UHGV virus genome: UHGV-0293664
From: a virus
Reading direction: 5' to 3' (one strand)
DNA length: 64,000 nucleotides
Shown in pieces: positions 506 through 13,389 of the stretch. The notes below the pieces were generated by a model. It was given only the letters and a program-made list of their open reading frames with translations. It did no database searches and had not been told where the DNA came from. Each line of letters opens with the position of its first letter. Positions within the stretch are counted from its first letter, which is position 1. The translations under genes and the position numbers were made by a program.

Positions 506-856
506 ATGAAAGATGGGGATAAGCTGCTATATCTTAAAGTCCCCCTTGAAATACTATCTATGTCAAAAGTTTTGAATGACACAACTGGGGAGGTTGTTGT
601 TCTTGACTTATATGACAAGATCGTATACTGCTACCTGCACAACTGGTATAAGCTTGGAGGAAATTCACGCTTCACACCCAGCACAAGGAAAATTGCAGCA
701 GATGTAGGGATAAAGAAAACAAAAGCAGCAGCGTGCGTTAAAACTTTAGAATGTGCAGGAGTGGTTGAAATATCCACACAAGGGAGAGGTAAAAGATGCA
801 CATTTTCCAAAGTTTTGCCACCAGAAGAGGTTATTCGAATGTCAACAACTGATTAG
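506..856 (+). CDS. small DNA-binding protein, winged-HTH-like (possible origin-binding or regulatory protein)
   Basis: 116-aa ORF with RBS GGAGAA upstream; C-terminal segment STRKIAADVGIKKTKAAACVKTLECAGVV looks like a helix-turn-helix; sits immediately upstream of an iteron array. Confidence 0.35.
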   Translation: MKDGDKLLYLKVPLEILSMSKVLNDTTGEVVVLDLYDKIVYCYLHNWYKLGGNSRFTPSTRKIAADVGIKKTKAAACVKTLECAGVVEISTQGRGKRCTFSKVLPPEEVIRMSTTD

Positions 857-928
857 ACCAGTAAAAACTTAAATATCTGTACTATAAGGATTCGTATGTT
901 TTATGTTCGCCATGGAACAGACACTGTT

Positions 929-1015
929 AACTGTCCGTGATACGGACACTACTGTCCGTCACGCGGACACATCTGCCCGTAATACGGACACTAACTGTCC
1001 GTGATACGGACACAT
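929..1015. repeat. four tandem copies (about 21-bp period) of palindrome GTCCGT-N3-ACGGAC; iteron or operator array
   Basis: Core 15-mers at 934-948 (gtccgtgatacggac), 954-968 (gtccgtcacgcggac), 975-989 (gcccgtaatacggac), 997-1011 (gtccgtgatacggac). Confidence 0.7.
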
Positions 1016-1144
1016 AAAGAATATAACTAAAATAACTAAATAATAAAAATAAAAAGATCTAGTACTTATGGTACTAAAGTACATATACTTAACTTATGTA
1101 GAATATACTAGATCCTAAGTACCATGTTTTAAAATTATTACTTA
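1016..1144. other. AT-rich tract with shuffled inverted repeats (gatctagta / tactagatc; atggtact / agtaccat); possible DNA unwinding element
   Basis: Very high A+T, no ORF, lies between the iterons and a GC-rich island. Confidence 0.4.
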
Positions 1145-1400
1145 CTATAGGTAGTGTCGGCCCTTCATTGGCACTCGCCTACGAGGGGCGAGATGCCGGG
1201 CCTCCATGGTGCACACAATAACAGAAGTGCATACATGCAGGTCTGTTAACATGTGTGGGAGCGAAGCGATAGCGCAGGCCAAAGGCCGAGCACTGATGTG
1301 GACCACCGACGAAAGCTTGCCAGCGCCGTAAGGAGTCGGTTGAGAGTCTCCCGCGCGAGCTTGGATGAAGTTTATGTGTGGAAACGGACAAGAAGGCACC
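1145..1400. other. GC-rich non-coding island, candidate structured RNA or foreign insert
   Basis: Abrupt rise in G+C versus flanks; no plus-strand ORF; only overlapping minus-strand ORFs in two frames (1145..1399, 1179..1391) as expected for GC-rich non-coding DNA. Confidence 0.3.
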
Positions 1401-1517
1401 TAAATCGCTCCACAGCTATATAAACTGCACCAAGTAGGGCAATCACATCAGTTTGATAGAAAAGCTCGTTACAAAGCGATACAGTGAGTTTTTCTATAAC
1501 TTGAAGAGGAGGCTGCT

Positions 1518-2096
1518 ATGAGTTCACGCAAAGATTCCCGTGAAAAGATTGCAAAACGTTATCAGAATGAAGAACAGATGGAGAAAACTTTCAAGTGGAA
1601 GCCAGGTTTCCAGCGTAATCATTCTAACGCTCGTGATCGTAAGCATCCGGATAAGTGGTTAACACCGCCAAATGATGGCATGCAGGCTGGTGATGAGAAG
1701 GAGCTGTCACCTGGAAAAGATGGCAACTACATTCGCACTAAGGAAGCAGGTCCAAAGGATGACAGTTATCTTGTAGATAAGGTTCTTGACGGTATTGATG
1801 TAGATGTTGACACTGCACGAAACCTTTTTCTTGGTTGGTATCGCACAGGGTTTTTCGACATCAAGGCTATTCGTCGTGTTTGTGATATTAAAAAGTCTGC
1901 CTATGATGATGACTCCCTACATCGCACTCTGAGACAATACTCGGAGAGATACGGTCATCCAGTTATCACTCTTGACGATATTAACGAAGTGATGTATCAT
2001 GCAGAGGTTGTTGCAGGTAGATTCGGTGATGCATACCTGGACATCCTTTCTGCAAAGGATGAGGTAATGTTGAATAAGATTTACTATGAACGCTGA
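1518..2096 (+). CDS. hypothetical early protein
   Basis: 192-aa ORF preceded by RBS AGGAGG (1508-1513); no recognisable motif. Confidence 0.5.
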   Translation: MSSRKDSREKIAKRYQNEEQMEKTFKWKPGFQRNHSNARDRKHPDKWLTPPNDGMQAGDEKELSPGKDGNYIRTKEAGPKDDSYLVDKVLDGIDVDVDTARNLFLGWYRTGFFDIKAIRRVCDIKKSAYDDDSLHRTLRQYSERYGHPVITLDDINEVMYHAEVVAGRFGDAYLDILSAKDEVMLNKIYYER

Positions 2097-2295
2097 GGAG
2101 CGCTTAATGAACAATCTGGTAGCAAAGAACTGTAATAGGTTTAACAAGTCTGCGATTCACACTGACAGGAAAAAGAGCTGGTCTCCTGACATCGACGATG
2201 AGCTTGAGAGTTACTTTGAAGACCTGGTCACTAATGCAGATGAGATTGCGATTAAAGAATACGCAGACAGGCGAGATAAGGCCGGAATCTGTTGA
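2086..2295 (+). CDS. hypothetical small protein
   Basis: 69-aa ORF whose start overlaps the stop of the upstream gene (translational coupling). Confidence 0.35.
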   Translation: MNAEERLMNNLVAKNCNRFNKSAIHTDRKKSWSPDIDDELESYFEDLVTNADEIAIKEYADRRDKAGIC

Positions 2296-2371
2296 CAAAA
2301 ATAATCTTACCTGATAAGATCTGCAATATGATGTGATACAATTTTAACTTACGAGGTCTACAGGTAATGTT

Positions 2372-2614
2372 ATGTTTAAGGTTAAGCTCGTTTTTCGTTC
2401 CATGAATGAGGATTATTTAGAAGATGAAGGTGAATTTCGTGCACTAGATGATGCAATAGATTTTGCCAACGACTTAGCTTGTATGAATACTGGTTATGGG
2501 TTATGCTGTTGGGATGGTGGTGTTCAGATTGGCGATAGCAAGATCTTCTACTTCTACCCAGAGCCGGATAACAAACAAATTAAGTATGTTTTATTTATTT
2601 GTGCTTTACAATGA
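2372..2614 (+). CDS. hypothetical small protein
   Basis: 80-aa ORF; TTGACA at 2292-2297 upstream suggests a promoter. Confidence 0.35.
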   Translation: MFKVKLVFRSMNEDYLEDEGEFRALDDAIDFANDLACMNTGYGLCCWDGGVQIGDSKIFYFYPEPDNKQIKYVLFICALQ

Positions 2615-2639
2615 GGTTGTTTTCGTGTATCATGATGAA

Positions 2640-2900
2640 TATCCAATTTAAAGATGAATTTGATGGCTTTATCTCCGGATGCTTTGAAACAGGGTTCGGA
2701 GAAGACTGAGTTCCCCTTAGAGGGCTTGATAGTGCACCACACTCAAAATGGTAGGGGCAGCCAGCACATGACGATGTGACCCCAGCCAACCTGTAATAAG
2801 GTCGAGCCCAAGTGCGGTAATGGGTATAGCTGGTAACCCACTTGTTGGGTCTTGTTGGTCCAGGACGCTGGGCAAGTCGCAGGGAACACCACCCTGCGGC
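2640..2900. other. second GC-rich non-coding island, candidate structured RNA
   Basis: High G+C; four overlapping minus-strand ORFs of about 62-64 aa in different frames and no credible coding frame. Confidence 0.3.
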
Positions 2901-2904
2901 GAAC

Positions 2905-2933
2905 TTGACAATCAGTATTTGCTATGATAAAAT
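2905..2933 (+). promoter_or_regulatory. sigma70-type promoter TTGACA-N17-TAAAAT
   Basis: TTGACA 2905-2910, 17-nt spacer, TAAAAT 2928-2933. Confidence 0.65.
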
Positions 2934-2938
2934 CCACC

Positions 2939-2950
2939 TATCACGTGATA
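2939..2950. promoter_or_regulatory. perfect 12-bp palindrome TATCACGTGATA, putative operator
   Basis: Self-complementary sequence at the predicted transcription start, between the -10 element and the RBS of CDS 2962..3300. Confidence 0.5.
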
Positions 2951-2961
2951 ATGGAGGAAAC

Positions 2962-3300
2962 ATGGCGGATACAACTAAAAAGCGTCGCCGTAGAGGCAGA
3001 CCTCTGAAAGAGGAGTCCAACGCCATTCAGCTAGAGAAGAACATCCTTGATATGAAGGAATCTTTTATAGCGATGGTTCCAGAAGCTCACAAAGTTTTAA
3101 GAGAGCTGATGTTGGACCCGAAAACCAAACAAAATATTCGTCAAAGCATTGCAGAGTATGTTCTTGATAAGGCAGAACGAATGCAGGAAGAATATGATGA
3201 GATGTTTGGTGAAGAGGAAGAGGTGGTAGTGGAAGAGGCTGAAAAACCAGCACCCTTTATGCCATTTACCACAGAAATACAGCCTGTTGGCAATAGTTAA
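2962..3300 (+). CDS. basic/acidic small protein with KKRRRRGRP motif, putative nucleic-acid-binding regulator
   Basis: ATG at 2962 after RBS GGAGGA; Arg/Lys patch at N-terminus, acidic C-terminus; the track ORF 2842..3300 was trimmed because its upstream part covers the promoter. Confidence 0.5.
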   Translation: MADTTKKRRRRGRPLKEESNAIQLEKNILDMKESFIAMVPEAHKVLRELMLDPKTKQNIRQSIAEYVLDKAERMQEEYDEMFGEEEEVVVEEAEKPAPFMPFTTEIQPVGNS

Positions 3301-3396: not shown

Positions 3397-3471
3397 GCCC
3401 TGTTAGCTTAGTGGATAAAGCAGCGGCCTTCTAAGCCGTTGACACTGGTTCGAGTCCAGTACGGGGTGCCA
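3397..3471 (+). tRNA. tRNA-Arg (anticodon TCT)
   Basis: Hand-folded cloverleaf: 7-bp acceptor stem (two G-U pairs), D-loop with GG, anticodon loop cttctaa, T-arm actgg-ttcgagt-ccagt, encoded CCA. Confidence 0.7.
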
Positions 3472-3601
3472 AGTTCTTTTTAATGTAGCTTACTTTAGCA
3501 GAGTAAATCTTCGGCAAGTGGCGGTAACCACTTTACCGATACCTCATAGTTAGTGGTGAGAACACTAGCTATTTTAAAAAGAATTTAAATATTAGTATTT
3601 A

Positions 3602-3689
3602 GGTGAGTTAATTCCGTAGGGGTAGCGGGGCAGACTGTAAATCTGTTATCATTGCGATTCGGGTGGTTCGACTCCATCACTCACCACCA
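3602..3689 (+). tRNA. tRNA-Tyr (anticodon GTA), long variable arm
   Basis: Acceptor ggtgagt/actcacc, anticodon loop ctgtaaa, long variable arm, T-loop ttcgact, encoded CCA. Confidence 0.7.
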
Positions 3690-3803
3690 AATTTATATTT
3701 TTAAATGCATAAATCATACAGATAATGGCATTGATATTTATCGTCGTTTATACTAGTCACTAACTGCTCGAAAATCAGTGTCATTATCAGTATTGTTTAT
3801 AAA

Positions 3804-3894
3804 AGAGGGTAGGGAGCAATGGTGCTCAAGCGGTCTTGAAAACCGTCCCGTTGAGGATGACTCGATGATGGTTCGATTCCATTATCCTCTGCCA
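3804..3894 (+). tRNA. tRNA-Ser (anticodon TGA), long variable arm
   Basis: Acceptor agagggt/atcctct, anticodon stem gcggt/accgt with loop cttgaaa, long variable arm, T-loop ttcgatt, encoded CCA. Confidence 0.7.
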
Positions 3895-3992
3895 TATTGT
3901 TGACCTTGTAATTAAGCGAAAGCCGGAAGCAGAACCGGATTATCAAATGTTACAGTCGTCATCGCCGACTAGCAACATGGTCAACATACTGA

Positions 3993-4089
3993 GCTAGGTA
4001 AGCCCTTTGGCAAGGGCGAGGATTTTTAATCCTGAAAATAGACGAGGTAGTCGTTGAATACATAGGTGGTTCGATTCCATCACCTAGCA
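3993..4089 (+). tRNA. aberrant 97-nt tRNA-like gene (possible anticodon TTT; isotype unresolved; may be a pseudogene)
   Basis: Perfect 7-bp acceptor stem gctaggt/acctagc, canonical D-arm gccc-tttggcaa-gggc and T-arm ggtgg-ttcgatt-ccatc, but about 30 extra nt between anticodon and T arms and no encoded CCA. Confidence 0.4.
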
Positions 4090-4096
4090 CCTTTTT

Positions 4097-4172
4097 GCTG
4101 ATGTAGCACAATTGGTAGTGCAATTGATTTGTAATCAATAGGTTGCAGGTTCGAGTCCTGCTATCAGCACCA
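4097..4172 (+). tRNA. tRNA-Thr (anticodon TGT)
   Basis: Acceptor gctgatg/tatcagc, anticodon stem attga/tcaat with loop tttgtaa, T-arm gcagg-ttcgagt-cctgc, encoded CCA. Confidence 0.75.
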
Positions 4173-4173
4173 T

Positions 4174-4248
4174 GGCCCTGTAGCTGGAAGGTTCAAGCAA
4201 GCGACTCATAATCGCCAGACGGTGGTTCAATTCCACCCAGGGCCACCA
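4174..4248 (+). tRNA. tRNA with CAT anticodon (Met, or Ile if lysidine-modified)
   Basis: Perfect acceptor ggccctg/cagggcc, anticodon loop ctcataa, T-arm ggtgg-ttcaatt-ccacc, encoded CCA; D-stem and first anticodon-stem pair are imperfect. Confidence 0.6.
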
Positions 4249-4259
4249 AATAATAAATA

Positions 4260-4336
4260 CTCCGCGTAGCTCAGCTTGGTAGAGCGCCTGATTTGGGATC
4301 AGGAGGTCGAGTGTTCGAATCACTCCGTGGAGACCA
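4260..4336 (+). tRNA. tRNA-Pro (anticodon TGG)
   Basis: Acceptor ctccgcg/cgtggag, D-arm gctc-agcttggtag-agcg, anticodon stem cctga/tcagg with loop tttggga (G37), T-arm gagtg-ttcgaat-cactc, encoded CCA. Confidence 0.75.
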
Positions 4337-4705: not shown

Positions 4706-4741
4706 CCCGCCCCGTTAGCTGTATAGCTGCGGGGTTTTTTC
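4706..4741 (+). terminator. intrinsic terminator
   Basis: Stem ccccg/cgggg with internal palindromic loop, followed by TTTTTTCGTTT. Confidence 0.5.
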
Positions 4742-4758
4742 GTTTCTGGAGCCTTAAA

Positions 4759-5157
4759 ATGATTTCAGTTTTAACATGGCTGAGCAGGTATAGAGGGGTC
4801 ATAAAAGGTTTAGTTTTTGCAGCTGCGATAGGTACAGCTTATCTTGGGGCCGTATATTGGTTTAACTCTAAGATTAATGAAGCCTACCAAGAGGGTGTAT
4901 CAGCAACAGAGTTAAAGTGGGAACGGATCCTTGATCAGCAACAAAAGCAGGCCGACAAAATTAAAATGGGCCACGCAGAGGAGGTTAAAAACCTTGAAAA
5001 ATCCCTTTCTGATCTGCAGGATAAATTAAATATGGCTGAGAAGGCAGGTAAAGAAAAGCAGATTATCTACCTCCAGTCACCTGAGGGCAAGAAGTCAACA
5101 CTTCCTGATCAGCTTATAGATATTTATAATGAGAGTATCAATCAGGAGGATCAATGA
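4759..5157 (+). CDS. i-spanin (Rz-like inner-membrane spanin)
   Basis: N-terminal hydrophobic segment GLVFAAAIGTAYLGAVYWF followed by a charged coiled-coil region; next gene overlaps its 3' end. Confidence 0.5.
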   Translation: MISVLTWLSRYRGVIKGLVFAAAIGTAYLGAVYWFNSKINEAYQEGVSATELKWERILDQQQKQADKIKMGHAEEVKNLEKSLSDLQDKLNMAEKAGKEKQIIYLQSPEGKKSTLPDQLIDIYNESINQEDQ

Positions 5158-6749: not shown

Positions 6750-7871
6750 ACGCAGTTCGAATGGGAGCAGATAGACTATCTGATGTCTCGTCTGCGATCT
6801 CAGTCAAAGTATCCATCAAGAATGGTTATCAGCTGTAACCCCGATTCAGAACACATGCTTGCCAAACTGGTTAGGTGGTGGTTGGACGATGAAGGGTATC
6901 CAGATCCGGAGAAATGCGGTAAGAAAAGATATTTTATCCGACGCGACGGTGAATTTATCTGGGGAGACTCTAAAGAAGAGTTGATAGAGAAATACACCAC
7001 GGTTAACGGACTGGGTGTAGAGATCAAGCCGAGACCGTTGTCATTCTCGTTTATAGGCGCAACAATCTTCGATAATCCTGTCTGTTTGAGAGACAACCCA
7101 GAATACCTTGCTTTCCTTGAAGGTCTACCCGAGCTTGAAAAAGCTCAGCTTCTTCATGGCAACTGGTTTGCCAAACCTGAGGGTGCGAACTATTTCCAAA
7201 GATCTTTCCTTCGTGATGCCGATAGAGTACCACTTGGATCAGTATCTTGCAGGGCATGGGATAAAGCTGGAACTGAAAGAACTTCAGGTAATAAATTCCC
7301 TGACTTTACCGCCAGTGTTAAGGTAAGTAAAGATAGCGACGGCTTTTATTACCTGTCCGGTTATTATTGTCCTGAGAACGTGGATGACGGGAGGTATTCC
7401 ACAGGTCTGGAAGGTAAGTTCTGTAAAAAGGCTGGTGAACGAGATGTGATCATCAGGAAACAGGCACAGTTTGATGGTGATGATTGTATAATCGTATTCT
7501 CTGTGGACCCCGGTCAGGCAGGTAAGAGTGAGTTCTTAACTTCCTCCAGATCCTTACTCGCCGAAGGGTTTAGGGTTGAAGAAGACCCAATGCCTTCCAA
7601 CAAATCTAAACTAACAAGGTTCTCACCTTTTGCCAATCTTGCCCAACAAGGAATGGTGAGGATTGTAAAATCCAGTTTTCATCCTGATACTCTGGAAGCA
7701 TTTCTGACTGAACTTGAAAAATTCAACGGGGAAAGATCAACATTTAACAGAAAAGACGACTGGGCCGACTGTGTAGCTTCTGCGATTAATTTCCTGGAGA
7801 AAGAGGAGGTAGCACTTCCTTGTGTTATTCCATCAATCTCATCACCTTCTATGTTCAAGCGTTTTATCTAA
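6750..7871 (+). CDS. terL: terminase large subunit, exon 2 (coupling and nuclease C-terminal part)
   Basis: Frame open from 6747; proposed junction gives ...MVCFDEG|TQFEWEQIDYLMSRLR...; SRMVISCNPDSEH coupling-like motif, acidic nuclease-like motifs FSVDPGQAGK and DDWADCVASAINF. Confidence 0.7.
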   Translation, partial: TQFEWEQIDYLMSRLRSQSKYPSRMVISCNPDSEHMLAKLVRWWLDDEGYPDPEKCGKKRYFIRRDGEFIWGDSKEELIEKYTTVNGLGVEIKPRPLSFSFIGATIFDNPVCLRDNPEYLAFLEGLPELEKAQLLHGNWFAKPEGANYFQRSFLRDADRVPLGSVSCRAWDKAGTERTSGNKFPDFTASVKVSKDSDGFYYLSGYYCPENVDDGRYSTGLEGKFCKKAGERDVIIRKQAQFDGDDCIIVFSVDPGQAGKSEFLTSSRSLLAEGFRVEEDPMPSNKSKLTRFSPFANLAQQGMVRIVKSSFHPDTLEAFLTELEKFNGERSTFNRKDDWADCVASAINFLEKEEVALPCVIPSISSPSMFKRFI

Positions 7872-7874
7872 GTG

Positions 7875-7903
7875 TTGCCAATCTTGATCAGATGTGGTAC
7901 AAT
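7875..7903 (+). promoter_or_regulatory. sigma70-type promoter with extended -10 (TTGCCA-N17-TGgTACAAT)
   Basis: TTGCCA 7875-7880; TG at 7895-7896; TACAAT 7898-7903. Confidence 0.5.
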
Positions 7904-7919
7904 AGAGTAATTGGAGATA

Positions 7920-7946
7920 ATAGCCCTCTGATGAGGGCTATTTTGT
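7920..7946 (+). terminator. hairpin plus T-tract just downstream of the promoter (possible attenuator)
   Basis: atagccctc-tgatg-agggctat followed by tttgtt, about 20 nt downstream of the -10 and upstream of the portal RBS. Confidence 0.4.
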
Positions 7947-7971
7947 TATACTGTTTTGAGGGGTAAAGCTT

Positions 7972-9528
7972 GTGTCCAAAAAGAACCGCAGGAAACACAA
8001 CGCCACAGCCAAAACTGTGAATAAATCTGGGAACGCAGGCGCACCAACTCATAATGTTCGTATGAGTGAGATCGGTTCTGGCGCACTTTCCCAAATTATG
8101 GCAGAATCGCAATCTATGATGGTTGAGGAATTGCGTTGGCCTCAGCTGATTGCCACCGTGGAGACTATGAAATGTGATTCCACAGTTGCTACTGCCTTAG
8201 ATACAAAATATGTTTTCATCACGAAAGCATTCAATGATTTTAAGATCCTTTATAATGTTAAAAGTGAAGACTCTAAGAAAGCTGCAGAGCTTATAGAGTA
8301 TTCTTTGCGTAATTTGGCAAACCAACAAACTCTTCGAGATATCGCAAGAAGCGCAGCTACCTTTAACGAGTATGGTTTTTCACTGTTTGAGAAAGTATAC
8401 CGCAGAGAGAAAGAAGGTAAATATGCCGGGATGCTTCTTATTGATAAAATTGCATTCCGACCTCAGGCCAGCTTGTCCAGATCAGAGCCGTTTGTTTTTG
8501 ACAAGAATAGTAGAACACTGACAGGTATTTATCAGTCACCTAATGCATTTCTAAACACTCAGAATGCACGCTGGGCTGGACCTCTTGCTGCAATGCCTTC
8601 AAAAGGCTTTAATGAGCCTGAAATTTTCATCCCTGCTAAAAAGCTTATGCTCATGACCCTGTCAGGAACAGAATCTAACCCTGCAGGTGTATCACCAATG
8701 ATAGGTTGCTACAGATCTTTCCGTGAGAAAGTTCTGATTGAAAACCTTGAGGTTGTTGGCTGTTCCAAAGACCTTGGTGGTGTGCTTGAGCTGAAAATTC
8801 CTTCCAATATTTTGAACAAGGCCAGCATTGACCCGAATTCAATGGAAGGGAGAATGGTTGCAGACCTTATGCTTGACGCAGCAAACGCCCATAGTGGTGA
8901 GCAAAGTTTCTTTATACTTCCGTCTGATAGAGATAAGTCTGGTAAAGAGCTTTACTCCATGACCCTGAAGGGGGTTGACGGTATGGGTAAGCAGTATTCC
9001 ACTAAAGATTTGATTGATGCCCGTAAGAAGGCGATTCTTGACCGTTTCGGTGCTGGCTTTATTAACCTTGGTAACGATAACGTCGGATCTTTCTCTCTGT
9101 CTGAGTCAAAACAGTCTATCCATGGTCATTTTGTTCAGCGTGATATAGATATTATCACTGAGGCCTTCAATAAAGATCTTATCCCACAGCTTCTGGCATT
9201 GAATGGTATCATCCTTGAAGATGATGATATGCCTAAACTGAAACCTGGTCTGATTGAAGAGGTGGACATGGAGAGCTTCTCCAAGTTTGTCCAGAGGATC
9301 GGTGCTGTAGGTTACTTGCCAAAAACTCCTGCAGTAATTAATAAGATTCTTGAAGTAGGCGGGTTTGATGAAAGATTTGACGAGGACATGGATCAGGAAG
9401 AGCTGATGAAGCTCTTGGGCCAGGACATTAGTAGGGCTGGTGATGGAATGGCTGCAGGATCCACTGGCAACGGCACTTCTAAGATGTCATCAACCAGAGA
9501 TAATTCCATATCCAACATGGAAAATTAA
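7972..9528 (+). CDS. portal protein
   Basis: 518-aa ORF (GTG start after RBS GAGGGG) directly downstream of terminase; size and position typical of portal; no motif check possible. Confidence 0.55.
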   Translation: MSKKNRRKHNATAKTVNKSGNAGAPTHNVRMSEIGSGALSQIMAESQSMMVEELRWPQLIATVETMKCDSTVATALDTKYVFITKAFNDFKILYNVKSEDSKKAAELIEYSLRNLANQQTLRDIARSAATFNEYGFSLFEKVYRREKEGKYAGMLLIDKIAFRPQASLSRSEPFVFDKNSRTLTGIYQSPNAFLNTQNARWAGPLAAMPSKGFNEPEIFIPAKKLMLMTLSGTESNPAGVSPMIGCYRSFREKVLIENLEVVGCSKDLGGVLELKIPSNILNKASIDPNSMEGRMVADLMLDAANAHSGEQSFFILPSDRDKSGKELYSMTLKGVDGMGKQYSTKDLIDARKKAILDRFGAGFINLGNDNVGSFSLSESKQSIHGHFVQRDIDIITEAFNKDLIPQLLALNGIILEDDDMPKLKPGLIEEVDMESFSKFVQRIGAVGYLPKTPAVINKILEVGGFDERFDEDMDQEELMKLLGQDISRAGDGMAAGSTGNGTSKMSSTRDNSISNMEN

Positions 9529-12540: not shown

Positions 12541-13389
12541 GTGAAGAGAGCTGTATATCCAGTCGAGTATGATCCTCTATTAAGAGTTTTCAACAATCAG
12601 TTAAGTTTTTATCAATTTTTAGCACAATATAACCCAGAAATCAATGTTGGTTTATCAGCCCTGCTGCCACCAACAGAATTCGTTATCGGCAGTGTTCACT
12701 ATCCGTGCAGAACGATTGTAGACTTCTTCGAGAAGATTGCAAAACATACAGGACTGCCAATTGATCCTGGTATTTCAACTATCCGTATGGGTGTTATTCT
12801 TCTGTTCTTCACAGAGAACCTTGATGAAAGCACTTTAACACTGCAAAGCGGGGATGTCAATATCACACTCACCCCGTCAGTGTTTAAAGAGGTAGATGCT
12901 GCTTTCCAAGTTTCCGTGGCAGAGGGCCATCTATGGGACCCTGTAGGGATGCCTAAAAAAGTGACCATAAACGATGAGCAATGCAATATTGTTTATGAAG
13001 AAGATACCCAAACCTTCACCATTGAGTGGCCTAAGAAACGTTCTCAGGTTGTAAATCTTGGACTGGTCTCTACGATAGCTCCACCGCCTGAACCAGAGCC
13101 GGAGCCGCCTGTAGGTCCTACTGAACCTGGTGGTGGTGGTGAAGAATCTCAAGGTCCGACTGTACCTGAGGAAGGCACTGAGCAGGATCCTGAACAGGCA
13201 CAAGAATCAAGATCTTCTCGCAGTGATGTTGATGCCATACTACAGCAGGCCGCAGCTCTTAACAACGAAGATGACAAAAGTGGTTCAAAAGATGCACTTC
13301 AAGCCTTCGCTAAAGAGTACGGTGTTACCTTAAGTAAGGCAAAAACTTTCCAAAATATGATGAAAGATTTTGAGGCTGCACTGGCATAA
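12541..13389 (+). CDS. hypothetical head/neck protein with Pro/Glu-rich linker
   Basis: GTG start after RBS AGGAG (the track start 12469 lies in the terminator); contains PPEPEPEPPVGPTEPGGGGEE linker. Confidence 0.4.
   Translation: MKRAVYPVEYDPLLRVFNNQLSFYQFLAQYNPEINVGLSALLPPTEFVIGSVHYPCRTIVDFFEKIAKHTGLPIDPGISTIRMGVILLFFTENLDESTLTLQSGDVNITLTPSVFKEVDAAFQVSVAEGHLWDPVGMPKKVTINDEQCNIVYEEDTQTFTIEWPKKRSQVVNLGLVSTIAPPPEPEPEPPVGPTEPGGGGEESQGPTVPEEGTEQDPEQAQESRSSRSDVDAILQQAAALNNEDDKSGSKDALQAFAKEYGVTLSKAKTFQNMMKDFEAALA

Follow-up and report, generated by a model that had tools for sequence, protein, structure and literature searches.

From sequence comparisons and structure predictions, we propose that a GC-rich, non-coding block of the window analysed here belongs to a replication-origin module. 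The window is the whole 64,000-nucleotide stretch of the virus genome UHGV-0293664, which we assign to Vequintavirus (rV5-like myoviruses of E. coli), and the functional unit spans positions ~1153 to ~1414, a little past the end at 1400 given by the initial annotation. That this unit is a functional non-coding structured element of some kind is very probable. More tentatively, we favour the reading that it is a cis-acting, origin-associated folded-strand signal for priming or loading. The element is previously undescribed: in the literature searched, we found nothing on it, nor on Vequintavirus noncoding RNAs (ncRNAs), transcriptomes, origins or satellites.

The island at 1153–1402 is the GC maximum of the entire 64 kb, with a GC content of 0.568 against 0.442 for the whole window (99.98th percentile among all 250-nt windows), and just before it lies an AT-rich stretch of 130 nt with a GC content of 0.19 (1015–1144), a candidate DNA-unwinding element. 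The initial annotation, which described sharply raised G+C in AT-rich surroundings, was correct on this point, and its placing of the island next to an origin-like region was also fair, since four palindromic repeats (928–1013) and the AT-rich stretch precede the island. That the island might itself belong to the origin module was not among its suggestions. In annotated relatives, the genes run in the order RNA ligase (on the opposite strand), polynucleotide kinase (PNK), phosphoesterase and a 116-aa helix-turn-helix protein; these are followed by a 660-nt non-coding gap with the island, three small ORFs, a second non-coding gap and a cluster of six tRNA genes, which begins 2 kb downstream of the island. 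The element has the same orientation as all flanking genes, in the phage and in the plasmids described below alike. Neither strand of 860–1880 carries a sigma-70-like promoter or an intrinsic terminator in our scan, which is blind to phage-specific promoters. A T7-promoter-like sequence, ACTATAGG, at 1145–1152 was rejected because homologs do not conserve it.

Sequence comparison indicates that the island is under strong purifying selection, because 119 of 119 Vequintavirus genomes carry it (88–98% identity) and the most divergent relative keeps it while its flank diverges. This relative is an IMG/VR contig, L001, whose flanking protein is 83% identical: its upstream 300 nt, with the repeats and the AT-rich flank, cannot be aligned, and 1160–1360 is still 85–95% identical (~90% for the island). 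Many other Vequintavirus genomes are ~96% identical to the window over the full length of 800–3000. A covariance model of the core, R1, scores 91–99 bits in all members and at most 23 bits elsewhere, and a model of the 5' hairpin, R2, scores 79–88 bits in members and at most 17 bits elsewhere; the non-members scored included every locus from the pattern scans, phages G4 and RB69, and two further genera of Vequintavirinae. Each model has one match in the window, on the + strand only, and each plasmid unit likewise has a single copy on the + strand only. In our scans of viral, genome and metagenome collections, the members found are solely Vequintavirus contigs and plasmid-type contigs of 13.5–15 kb. 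The metagenome scan returned 38 loci, 5 of them real and all Vequintavirus or mini-plasmid, while the 12 matches of the genome-contig pattern scan were all judged to be chance, as was the one match of the viral-contig 18-mer scan (L016, coding); among the 21 matches of the viral-contig 5'-block scan, only the known contig is real. Beside the phosphoesterase of Mydovirus and Seunavirus, which are other Vequintavirinae genera, there is no equivalent non-coding module, and the E. coli chromosome has no match to the element, matches in E. coli being confined to the mini-plasmids.

Rfam searches of the window, the local region and the plasmid loci gave nothing that meets family level at gathering score or E ≤ 10; at E ≤ 10, the only matches were sub-gathering ones, a 23-bit partial match to rli43 (gathering 100) and 17.6 bits to UPD-PK2. 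The covariance search thus places the island in no RNA family, and the suggestion of a ribozyme or intron remnant finds no support, there being no intron-like context either. We also considered whether the element imitates the E. coli CRISPR I-E repeat as an RNA anti-CRISPR, and rejected this: 20 of 29 positions of the repeat match in this genome only, L001 and the plasmids reach 16–17 of 29 against a shuffle mean of 15, and the hairpin of the repeat is absent (−4.5 versus −15.1 kcal/mol).

The initial annotation had allowed the island only overlapping minus-strand ORFs and none on the plus strand. The minus-strand ORFs are present (84 aa, 1145–1399; 70 aa, 1179–1391), but the ORF list also contains plus-strand ORFs of 31 aa (1154–1249), 41 aa (1206–1331) and 56 aa (1253–1423), the last of which is annotated as ORF 78 in the rV5 record. 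It is nevertheless most improbable that the island encodes one or more small proteins, for example ORF 78 or the 84-aa minus-strand ORF. ORFs do occur in five frames, several records annotate one or two of them, and an AAGGAG lies 6 nt ahead of a TTG at 1340. Against this, each candidate ORF is interrupted by a stop or a frameshift, or has lost its start, in one or more of 14 homologs, and the records either leave the island empty or annotate differing ORFs in differing frames. Its 72 variable sites are distributed over the codon phases as 21/22/29, without the third-position bias of the neighbouring gene at 1518–2096 (36/21/96). In addition, the plasmid copy of the element has no corresponding ORF, and the only proteomics that we found, of virions, makes no mention of island ORF products. 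Because the frames are broken in homologs and codon periodicity is absent, we reject all five ORFs as genes and consider the island non-coding. The initial view of a non-coding, structured island is supported: the island is conserved, has no coding signal and contains two helices with compensatory changes.

These two helical modules, the 5' hairpin and the S2 stem, are robust as judged from the comparison of homologs. The 5' hairpin (1159–1202, + strand) consists of P1 (1159–1163/1198–1202), P2 (1170–1173/1194–1197) and P3 (1174–1179/1187–1192), with the loop at 1180–1186 and a bulged A at 1193. All 15 of its pairs can form in every sequence, and 2 of them are changed on both sides in the plasmid L014. 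Its minimum free energy (MFE) is −28.1 kcal/mol, with z scores of −3.2 as RNA and −3.4 as DNA, and the − strand behaves similarly (−3.0 to −3.5 over either strand, RNA or DNA). A variable spacer follows (1203–1250, + strand), which is ~190 nt long in L014. In the window it contains a hairpin at about 1209–1235, and in MaxTheCat, O157 typing phage 5 and Pr121LW an 18–21-nt deletion at 1215–1235 removes this hairpin; one of the three also has a 3-nt deletion at ~1270. Since the spacer hairpin is missing in three genomes, 1215–1235 is a dispensable part of the element.

The 3' domain (1253–1356, + strand) is delimited by a putative closing stem, P4 (GUGUGGGAG, 1253–1261, with CUCCCGCGC, 1348–1356; + strand, two U.G pairs), around small hairpins and S2. 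P4 received no covariation support in the comparison of homologs, and some genomes have disrupted versions of the small internal hairpins. As + strand RNA, the domain (1250–1360) is predicted to fold at −40.1 kcal/mol (z −1.3) with MFE and centroid in agreement, while the − strand gives −33.5 kcal/mol, a z of 0.05 and a largely unfolded centroid; as DNA, z is above 0 (+0.3 to +1.1), no better than shuffles. Within it lies the universal core of 67 nt (1294–1360, + strand), in which ATGTGGACC is followed by the S2 stem with its invariant loop and then by AGAGTCTCCCGCGCG. S2 has 6 bp (1305–1310/1335–1340, + strand) and presents a 24-nt loop (1311–1334, GAAAGCTTGCCAGCGCCG[T/G]AAGGA) that is invariant save for the one T/G position. 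All 6 pairs form in 15 sequences; three are double-changed in the plasmid, and two phages have a G.U variant. Taken alone, S2 is thermodynamically weak (z +0.66), yet it is kept by compensation around an invariant loop, and we therefore regard it as a recognition site rather than a stability element; the core probably acts as a recognition signal. At the 3' end, the conservation profile outlines a less conserved module (1374–1414, + strand; ATGTGTGGA...TCCACA), where a UGUGGA/UCCACA pairing is possible in most genomes, excluding L006 and L001, and the fold is no better than that of shuffles.

Taken together, the two robust modules have 21 pairs that are 100% formed across 15 distinct sequences, with five double-sided changes. 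In the pairing controls, 0 of 500 shuffles equalled the observed value, and sliding the partner by 1–3 columns left 29–43% paired. All five double changes come from the single split between phages and plasmid, that is, from one lineage comparison. The phage sequences alone vary too little for covariation, the plasmid homolog being the informative comparison; RNAalifold on the phages alone proposed a long-range model in which a single pair covaries, and this model was not used. It should be noted that symmetric changes are also possible in a DNA palindrome bound by a dimeric protein, which tempers covariation as a sign of a folded strand, and that the whole region folds equally well on both strands (z −2.70 and −2.84). 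The structured RNA proposed in the initial annotation stands in part: the 3' domain is coherent solely as + strand RNA, but no promoter or terminator brackets the island, and the stability of the 5' hairpin is the same for both strands and for DNA.

Upstream of the island, a 116-aa winged-helix protein (506–856, + strand) matches Pfam HTH_36 and DUF6945 as well as PHROG 12838, "replication initiation protein" (E 9e-80); its annotation is either transcriptional regulator or replication initiation protein. It is a DNA-binding domain alone, and its initiator function is not certain. Presumably it binds the downstream repeats, which are four iteron-like units of 21–22 bp (928–1013) spaced by 21, 21 and 22, each with the 17-bp palindrome TGTCCGTGATACGGACA, and which we regard as putative binding sites. 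In L001, five unrelated palindromic repeats of the GATACATATTTGTATCAGAT type after a different helix-turn-helix ORF replace the TGTCCGTGATACGGACA repeats, and an equivalent A-rich tract (2545–2610 of that contig) lies directly ahead of the element; a weak promoter-like site is found 65 nt 5' of the element. The corresponding plasmid protein is a lambda-O-like initiator of 288 aa with 23% identity to the phage protein over 87 aa (E 2e-5). Both match HTH_36 and have three replication-initiator PHROGs in common, and the plasmid protein also matches lambda-O-like and DnaD-like families. In the three contexts (window, L001 and plasmids), the protein and the repeats therefore differ each time and the downstream element is constant: the initiators are 23% identical, versus 85–100% for the core. 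Several features of a lambda-type origin are present here, namely dyad repeats spaced by about two helical turns with an AT-rich region after them, an adjacent winged-helix/O-like gene, and repeats that change along with the protein. The origin of rV5 could not be placed by skew analysis (PMC3606486).

The plasmids that share the core are circular E. coli plasmids of ~13.5 kb. They include L050, L051, L052, L014, L059 and L066 (records NZ_CP043822, NZ_CP178698, NZ_CP035869 and NZ_CP020521 and two metagenome contigs), and in one record the unit is present three times. Besides a major head protein, they encode three tail proteins: a tape measure protein (phrog_5255, E 1e-162), a protein for tail completion (phrog_222) and a member of phrog_5197. 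These three PHROG families also have matches in the window, and the plasmid tail proteins are 40–57% identical to those of the window. No polymerase, helicase, replisome or terminase genes were found among the encoded proteins. When the first 7 kb of a plasmid were compared with 50,697 phage records, the sole match was the 65-nt core, in exactly the 119 Vequintavirus genomes, and the second half matched only a Vequintavirus tail gene (66%). The core is the only non-coding block common to the plasmids and any of these phage records; a second candidate at 13205–13242 of the window was rejected because it lies inside a coding region. In the plasmids, too, the core is downstream of iterons, at a distance of 330–470 nt. 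Most of the plasmids are without the 5' hairpin, and a C(UUCG)G tetraloop occurs in one plasmid module. In the plasmid, the upstream operon ends in a + strand terminator 1.8 kb from the element; the only good + strand promoter is on the downstream side of the element, and the opposite strand has three terminator-like hairpins. Apparent paralogous modules in the leader of the plasmid capsid operon were rejected, as their local alignment score is at shuffle level.

These mini-plasmids, of which we found no description in the literature searched, look like satellites or miniature relatives of the lytic rV5-like phages. The triple record (L050, NZ_CP043822.1, 39,610 bp) consists of three tandem 13.5-kb units with small differences, one of them with truncated capsid and baseplate genes, and could be a true multimer or concatemer or an assembly artefact. 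On their otherwise conserved backbone, the mini-plasmids have at least four unrelated iteron families (L014, 340–460; L051, 4446–4700; L052, reverse strand, ~7870–8010; L059), which suggests swapped replication specificity (incompatibility). Between the iterons and the core lie hairpin modules bounded by TGTGTGGG, and their number varies, as if by repeat-mediated deletion or insertion. An extra segment of ~600 nt in L014 (541–1150), absent from the other plasmids, contains three AT-rich palindromic repeats (ATCAACATATCAATNTGATATA) and a phage-type 5' hairpin (79 bits with R2), and may be a second, phage-like origin segment. The three terminator-like hairpins of L051 are on the minus strand (4810–4838, 4725–4747 and 5090–5107), between the rep promoter and the iterons, and in the best of them a T-run comes after a stem of 11 bp; their role may be to protect the origin against leftward transcription or to terminate an antisense RNA. 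Extended −10 sigma-70 promoters of the form TTGACA-N17-TG-TAAGAT/TAAAAT/TATAAT are very similar in the phage and the mini-plasmids (window, 2292–2320 and 2905–2933; L051, 5278–5306; L052, 10955–10985), and such similar strong promoters fit expression of both phage and mini-plasmid by the unmodified host polymerase.

Based on these observations, we suggest a mechanism in which the island would be the constant GC-rich flank of a lambda-type replication-origin module, composed in order of a small winged-helix gene, four or five protein-specific dyad repeats, an AT-rich unwinding region and the element. The initiator would open the AT-rich region, and the adjacent strand, either as exposed ssDNA or as a + strand RNA transcript, could then fold to give the 5' hairpin and S2. 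A replication factor, such as a primase-helicase or another component for priming or loading, would dock on the invariant 24-nt loop of S2, in a manner comparable to the single-strand initiation signals beside plasmid and phage origins. The mini-plasmids, which lack a replisome of their own, may retain the core so that the same machinery recognises them. We infer the repeats and AT tract to be an origin and the element to act in cis, through an active strand that may be DNA or RNA and with a putative binding partner. Four points argue for this signal: the element is constant beside three different sets of initiator and repeats; no promoter or terminator surrounds it in the phage; in the plasmid, the + strand terminator is far upstream and the only good + strand promoter is downstream of it; and the core is common to plasmids without a replisome. 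Other points weigh against it. The layout would look no different for a repressor, its operators and a leader RNA, and the 3' domain, with a z of 0.3 as DNA, is coherent solely as + strand RNA, in line with the U.G pairs of P4 and the G.U variant of S2, which favour RNA. As the plasmid core lies 330–470 nt from the iterons, mostly without the 5' hairpin, the element is not tightly coupled to the unwinding region in every case. T7-type primases are known to need only trinucleotide sites. rV5 has been reported to encode a T7-type replisome, primase included (PMC3606486).

Among known systems, the constant flank of a lambda-type origin and the single-strand initiation signals are those that the element would most resemble in the way it works. 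It is a member of no named family, Rfam families included, and shows neither the sequence similarity of G4-type signals nor the opposed pair of RSF1010-type ones. In lambda and lambdoid phages, the repeats and the specificity of the initiator vary and the flank is constant. The locus described here is alike in its four dyad repeats with a winged-helix initiator, its AT-rich region and its GC-richer palindromic flank, and in the way the repeats change with initiator specificity beside a constant flank. In contrast to ori-lambda, the repeats follow the gene rather than lying inside it, the phage protein of 116 aa is a DNA-binding domain alone, and the flank is ~250 nt with covarying hairpins and an invariant loop instead of a 28-bp palindrome. 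The G4 oric, the R1/R100 G-site and RSF1010 ssiA/ssiB are GC-rich, multi-hairpin, non-coding, strand-specific signals beside an origin or unwinding region that are read as folded single strands, and the element would resemble them in this. However, blastn of the element and its plasmid versions against the G4 genome gave a best E of 0.18 and nothing at oric (3905–4000), so the element is not similar in sequence to the complementary-strand origin of G4; of a strand-specific cluster of stable ssDNA hairpins, the G4-type feature, the 5' hairpin has a z of −3.4 and the 3' domain +0.3 to +1.1. ssiA and ssiB form an opposed pair, unlike the single + strand copy in the window and in each plasmid unit. 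Mitochondrial OriL, a stem-loop origin used by a T7-like replisome, offers an analogy only, as a displaced-strand hairpin that serves as a priming site for such a replisome (Pol A and gp4-like helicase); it is a single short hairpin with a T-rich loop and has no sequence relation to the element. ColE1 RNA II and the T7 and T4 origin transcripts are alike in being structured, G-rich transcripts beside an unwinding region, and the + strand across the island has a positive GC skew; here, on the other hand, no promoter was found, the + orientation leads away from the AT-rich region, and any RNase H processing would be hypothetical.

An alternative that we consider possible, if less so than the origin signal, is a new structured + strand ncRNA, either a processed stable RNA or a cis leader of the early operon (the 192-aa ORF, island 2 and the tRNA cluster), whose invariant loop binds a protein or another RNA; its function need not involve replication. 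The co-orientation of the element with its flanking genes in phage and plasmid speaks for such an RNA, as do the coherence of the 3' domain only as + RNA (−40.1 versus −33.5 kcal/mol), the U.G and G.U pairs on the + strand, the C(UUCG)G tetraloop in the plasmid module and the multi-hairpin layout with invariant loops. Read-through transcription is likely, since no terminator separates the upstream genes from the element, and L001 has its weak promoter-like site upstream. The locus is rich in RNA functions, with the RNA ligase, the PNK and the six tRNAs close by, and recalls the T4 stable RNAs C and D (species 1 and 2), which are non-coding RNAs of unknown function next to the tRNA cluster of that phage; these have no sequence relation to the element, whose own expression would be putative. 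Conversely, no promoter or terminator bounds a discrete RNA in the window, the transcription signals of the plasmid (terminator 1.8 kb upstream, promoter downstream, terminator-like hairpins on the opposite strand) are poorly placed for one, no Rfam family matches, the small internal hairpins are not maintained, the whole region folds equally on both strands, and our literature search found no transcriptome data.

The same shared core could also be read as a pac recognition region for the Vequintavirus terminase that the terminase-less mini-plasmids have copied for helper packaging, which we think unlikely. Vequintaviruses are reported to be headful (pac) packagers (PMC13211470). The plasmids encode head and tail proteins and no terminase, the core is the only non-coding block that they share with any phage, and copies of a short motif, TGTGTGG(G), flank the core on either side; repeated motifs occur in some known pac sites. 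There is also a parallel in the cos site of P2 and P4, a short non-coding block kept by a phage and by a small element that has related structural genes and no packaging enzyme, but here the block is at a replication module rather than a known packaging site, and the satellite behaviour of the plasmids is putative. On the other side, pac sites are usually located within or close to the gene for the small terminase, but the present locus belongs to the early region, beside an initiator-like gene, and compensatory stems with a 24-nt invariant loop are unexpected for a duplex terminase site. Among the record positions listed, only MG065672.1 begins near the island, which gives no sign of a packaging start; packaging of the plasmids is itself putative; and TGTGTGG(G) is not enriched beyond the element, its use as a genome-wide signal being rejected because it is only mildly enriched and its other copies are all located within long ORFs. 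Very unlikely, finally, is a functionless remnant of DNA exchange between phage and plasmid. Its GC content is foreign to the phage and its sequence is common to the plasmids, but it is fixed in 119 of 119 genomes and conserved far above its flanks in L001, its stems are kept intact by compensatory changes, and its loop is invariant across replicons whose proteins are only 23–57% identical. The horizontal acquisition put forward in the initial annotation accordingly holds insofar as the core is common to E. coli mini-plasmids, and fails insofar as the island, being fixed in Vequintavirus, is no recent passenger.

Phages of the rV5-like group have been isolated widely and serve in cocktails for therapy and biocontrol, and in the Vequintavirus records examined, the element is blank or mis-annotated as assorted small ORFs. 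The origin-associated signal that we favour would make it a concrete candidate for the rV5-like origin module, and the core is a sequence link to a family of small plasmids with rV5-type tail genes. We speculate, with some reserve, that the core is a handle for an unrecognised plasmid-borne satellite family that exploits lytic rV5-like phages, in which a new kind of folded RNA or ssDNA signal read by the replication or packaging machinery of the phage marks both helper and parasite. A functional plasmid link would bring to light satellites of a strictly lytic group of coliphages together with the signal that such satellites copy, with a bearing on the design of phage cocktails, on the mobilisation of plasmids by phages and on minimal replicating or packageable vectors for these phages. 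If the element is a stable RNA, it would represent a new family of phage RNAs whose 24-nt loop is invariant and sharply defined.

Some further observations were made in and around the window. A second GC-rich non-coding island, island 2, lies at 2700–2900 (core 2782–2828; GC 0.52–0.60), between the ORF at 2372–2614 and an ORF from 2962. Its 45-nt core (CCAACCTGTAATAAGGTCGAGCCCAAGTGCGGTAATGGGT) matches, at 91–100% identity, an intergenic block that hundreds of T4-like phages from Escherichia, Klebsiella, Yersinia and Salmonella carry and that in RB69 is upstream of vs.8; the flanks are unrelated, island 2 has no Rfam match, and its fold has a z of only −1.6. Eighteen MG0656xx records labelled "Campylobacter phage" (D1, C15, A141 and others) are Vequintavirus genomes 96–98% identical to this phage, and the Campylobacter jejuni host label or sample of these records is doubtful. 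In the tRNA region (3397–4336), the tRNA callers disagree: 3602–3686 is called by Rfam only, and a tRNA-Ser at 3804–3894 by ARAGORN only. rV5 reportedly has a tRNA-Tyr. The tRNA gene at 3993–4091 is 97–99 nt long with no anticodon assigned, and may be an intron-containing or unusual tRNA.
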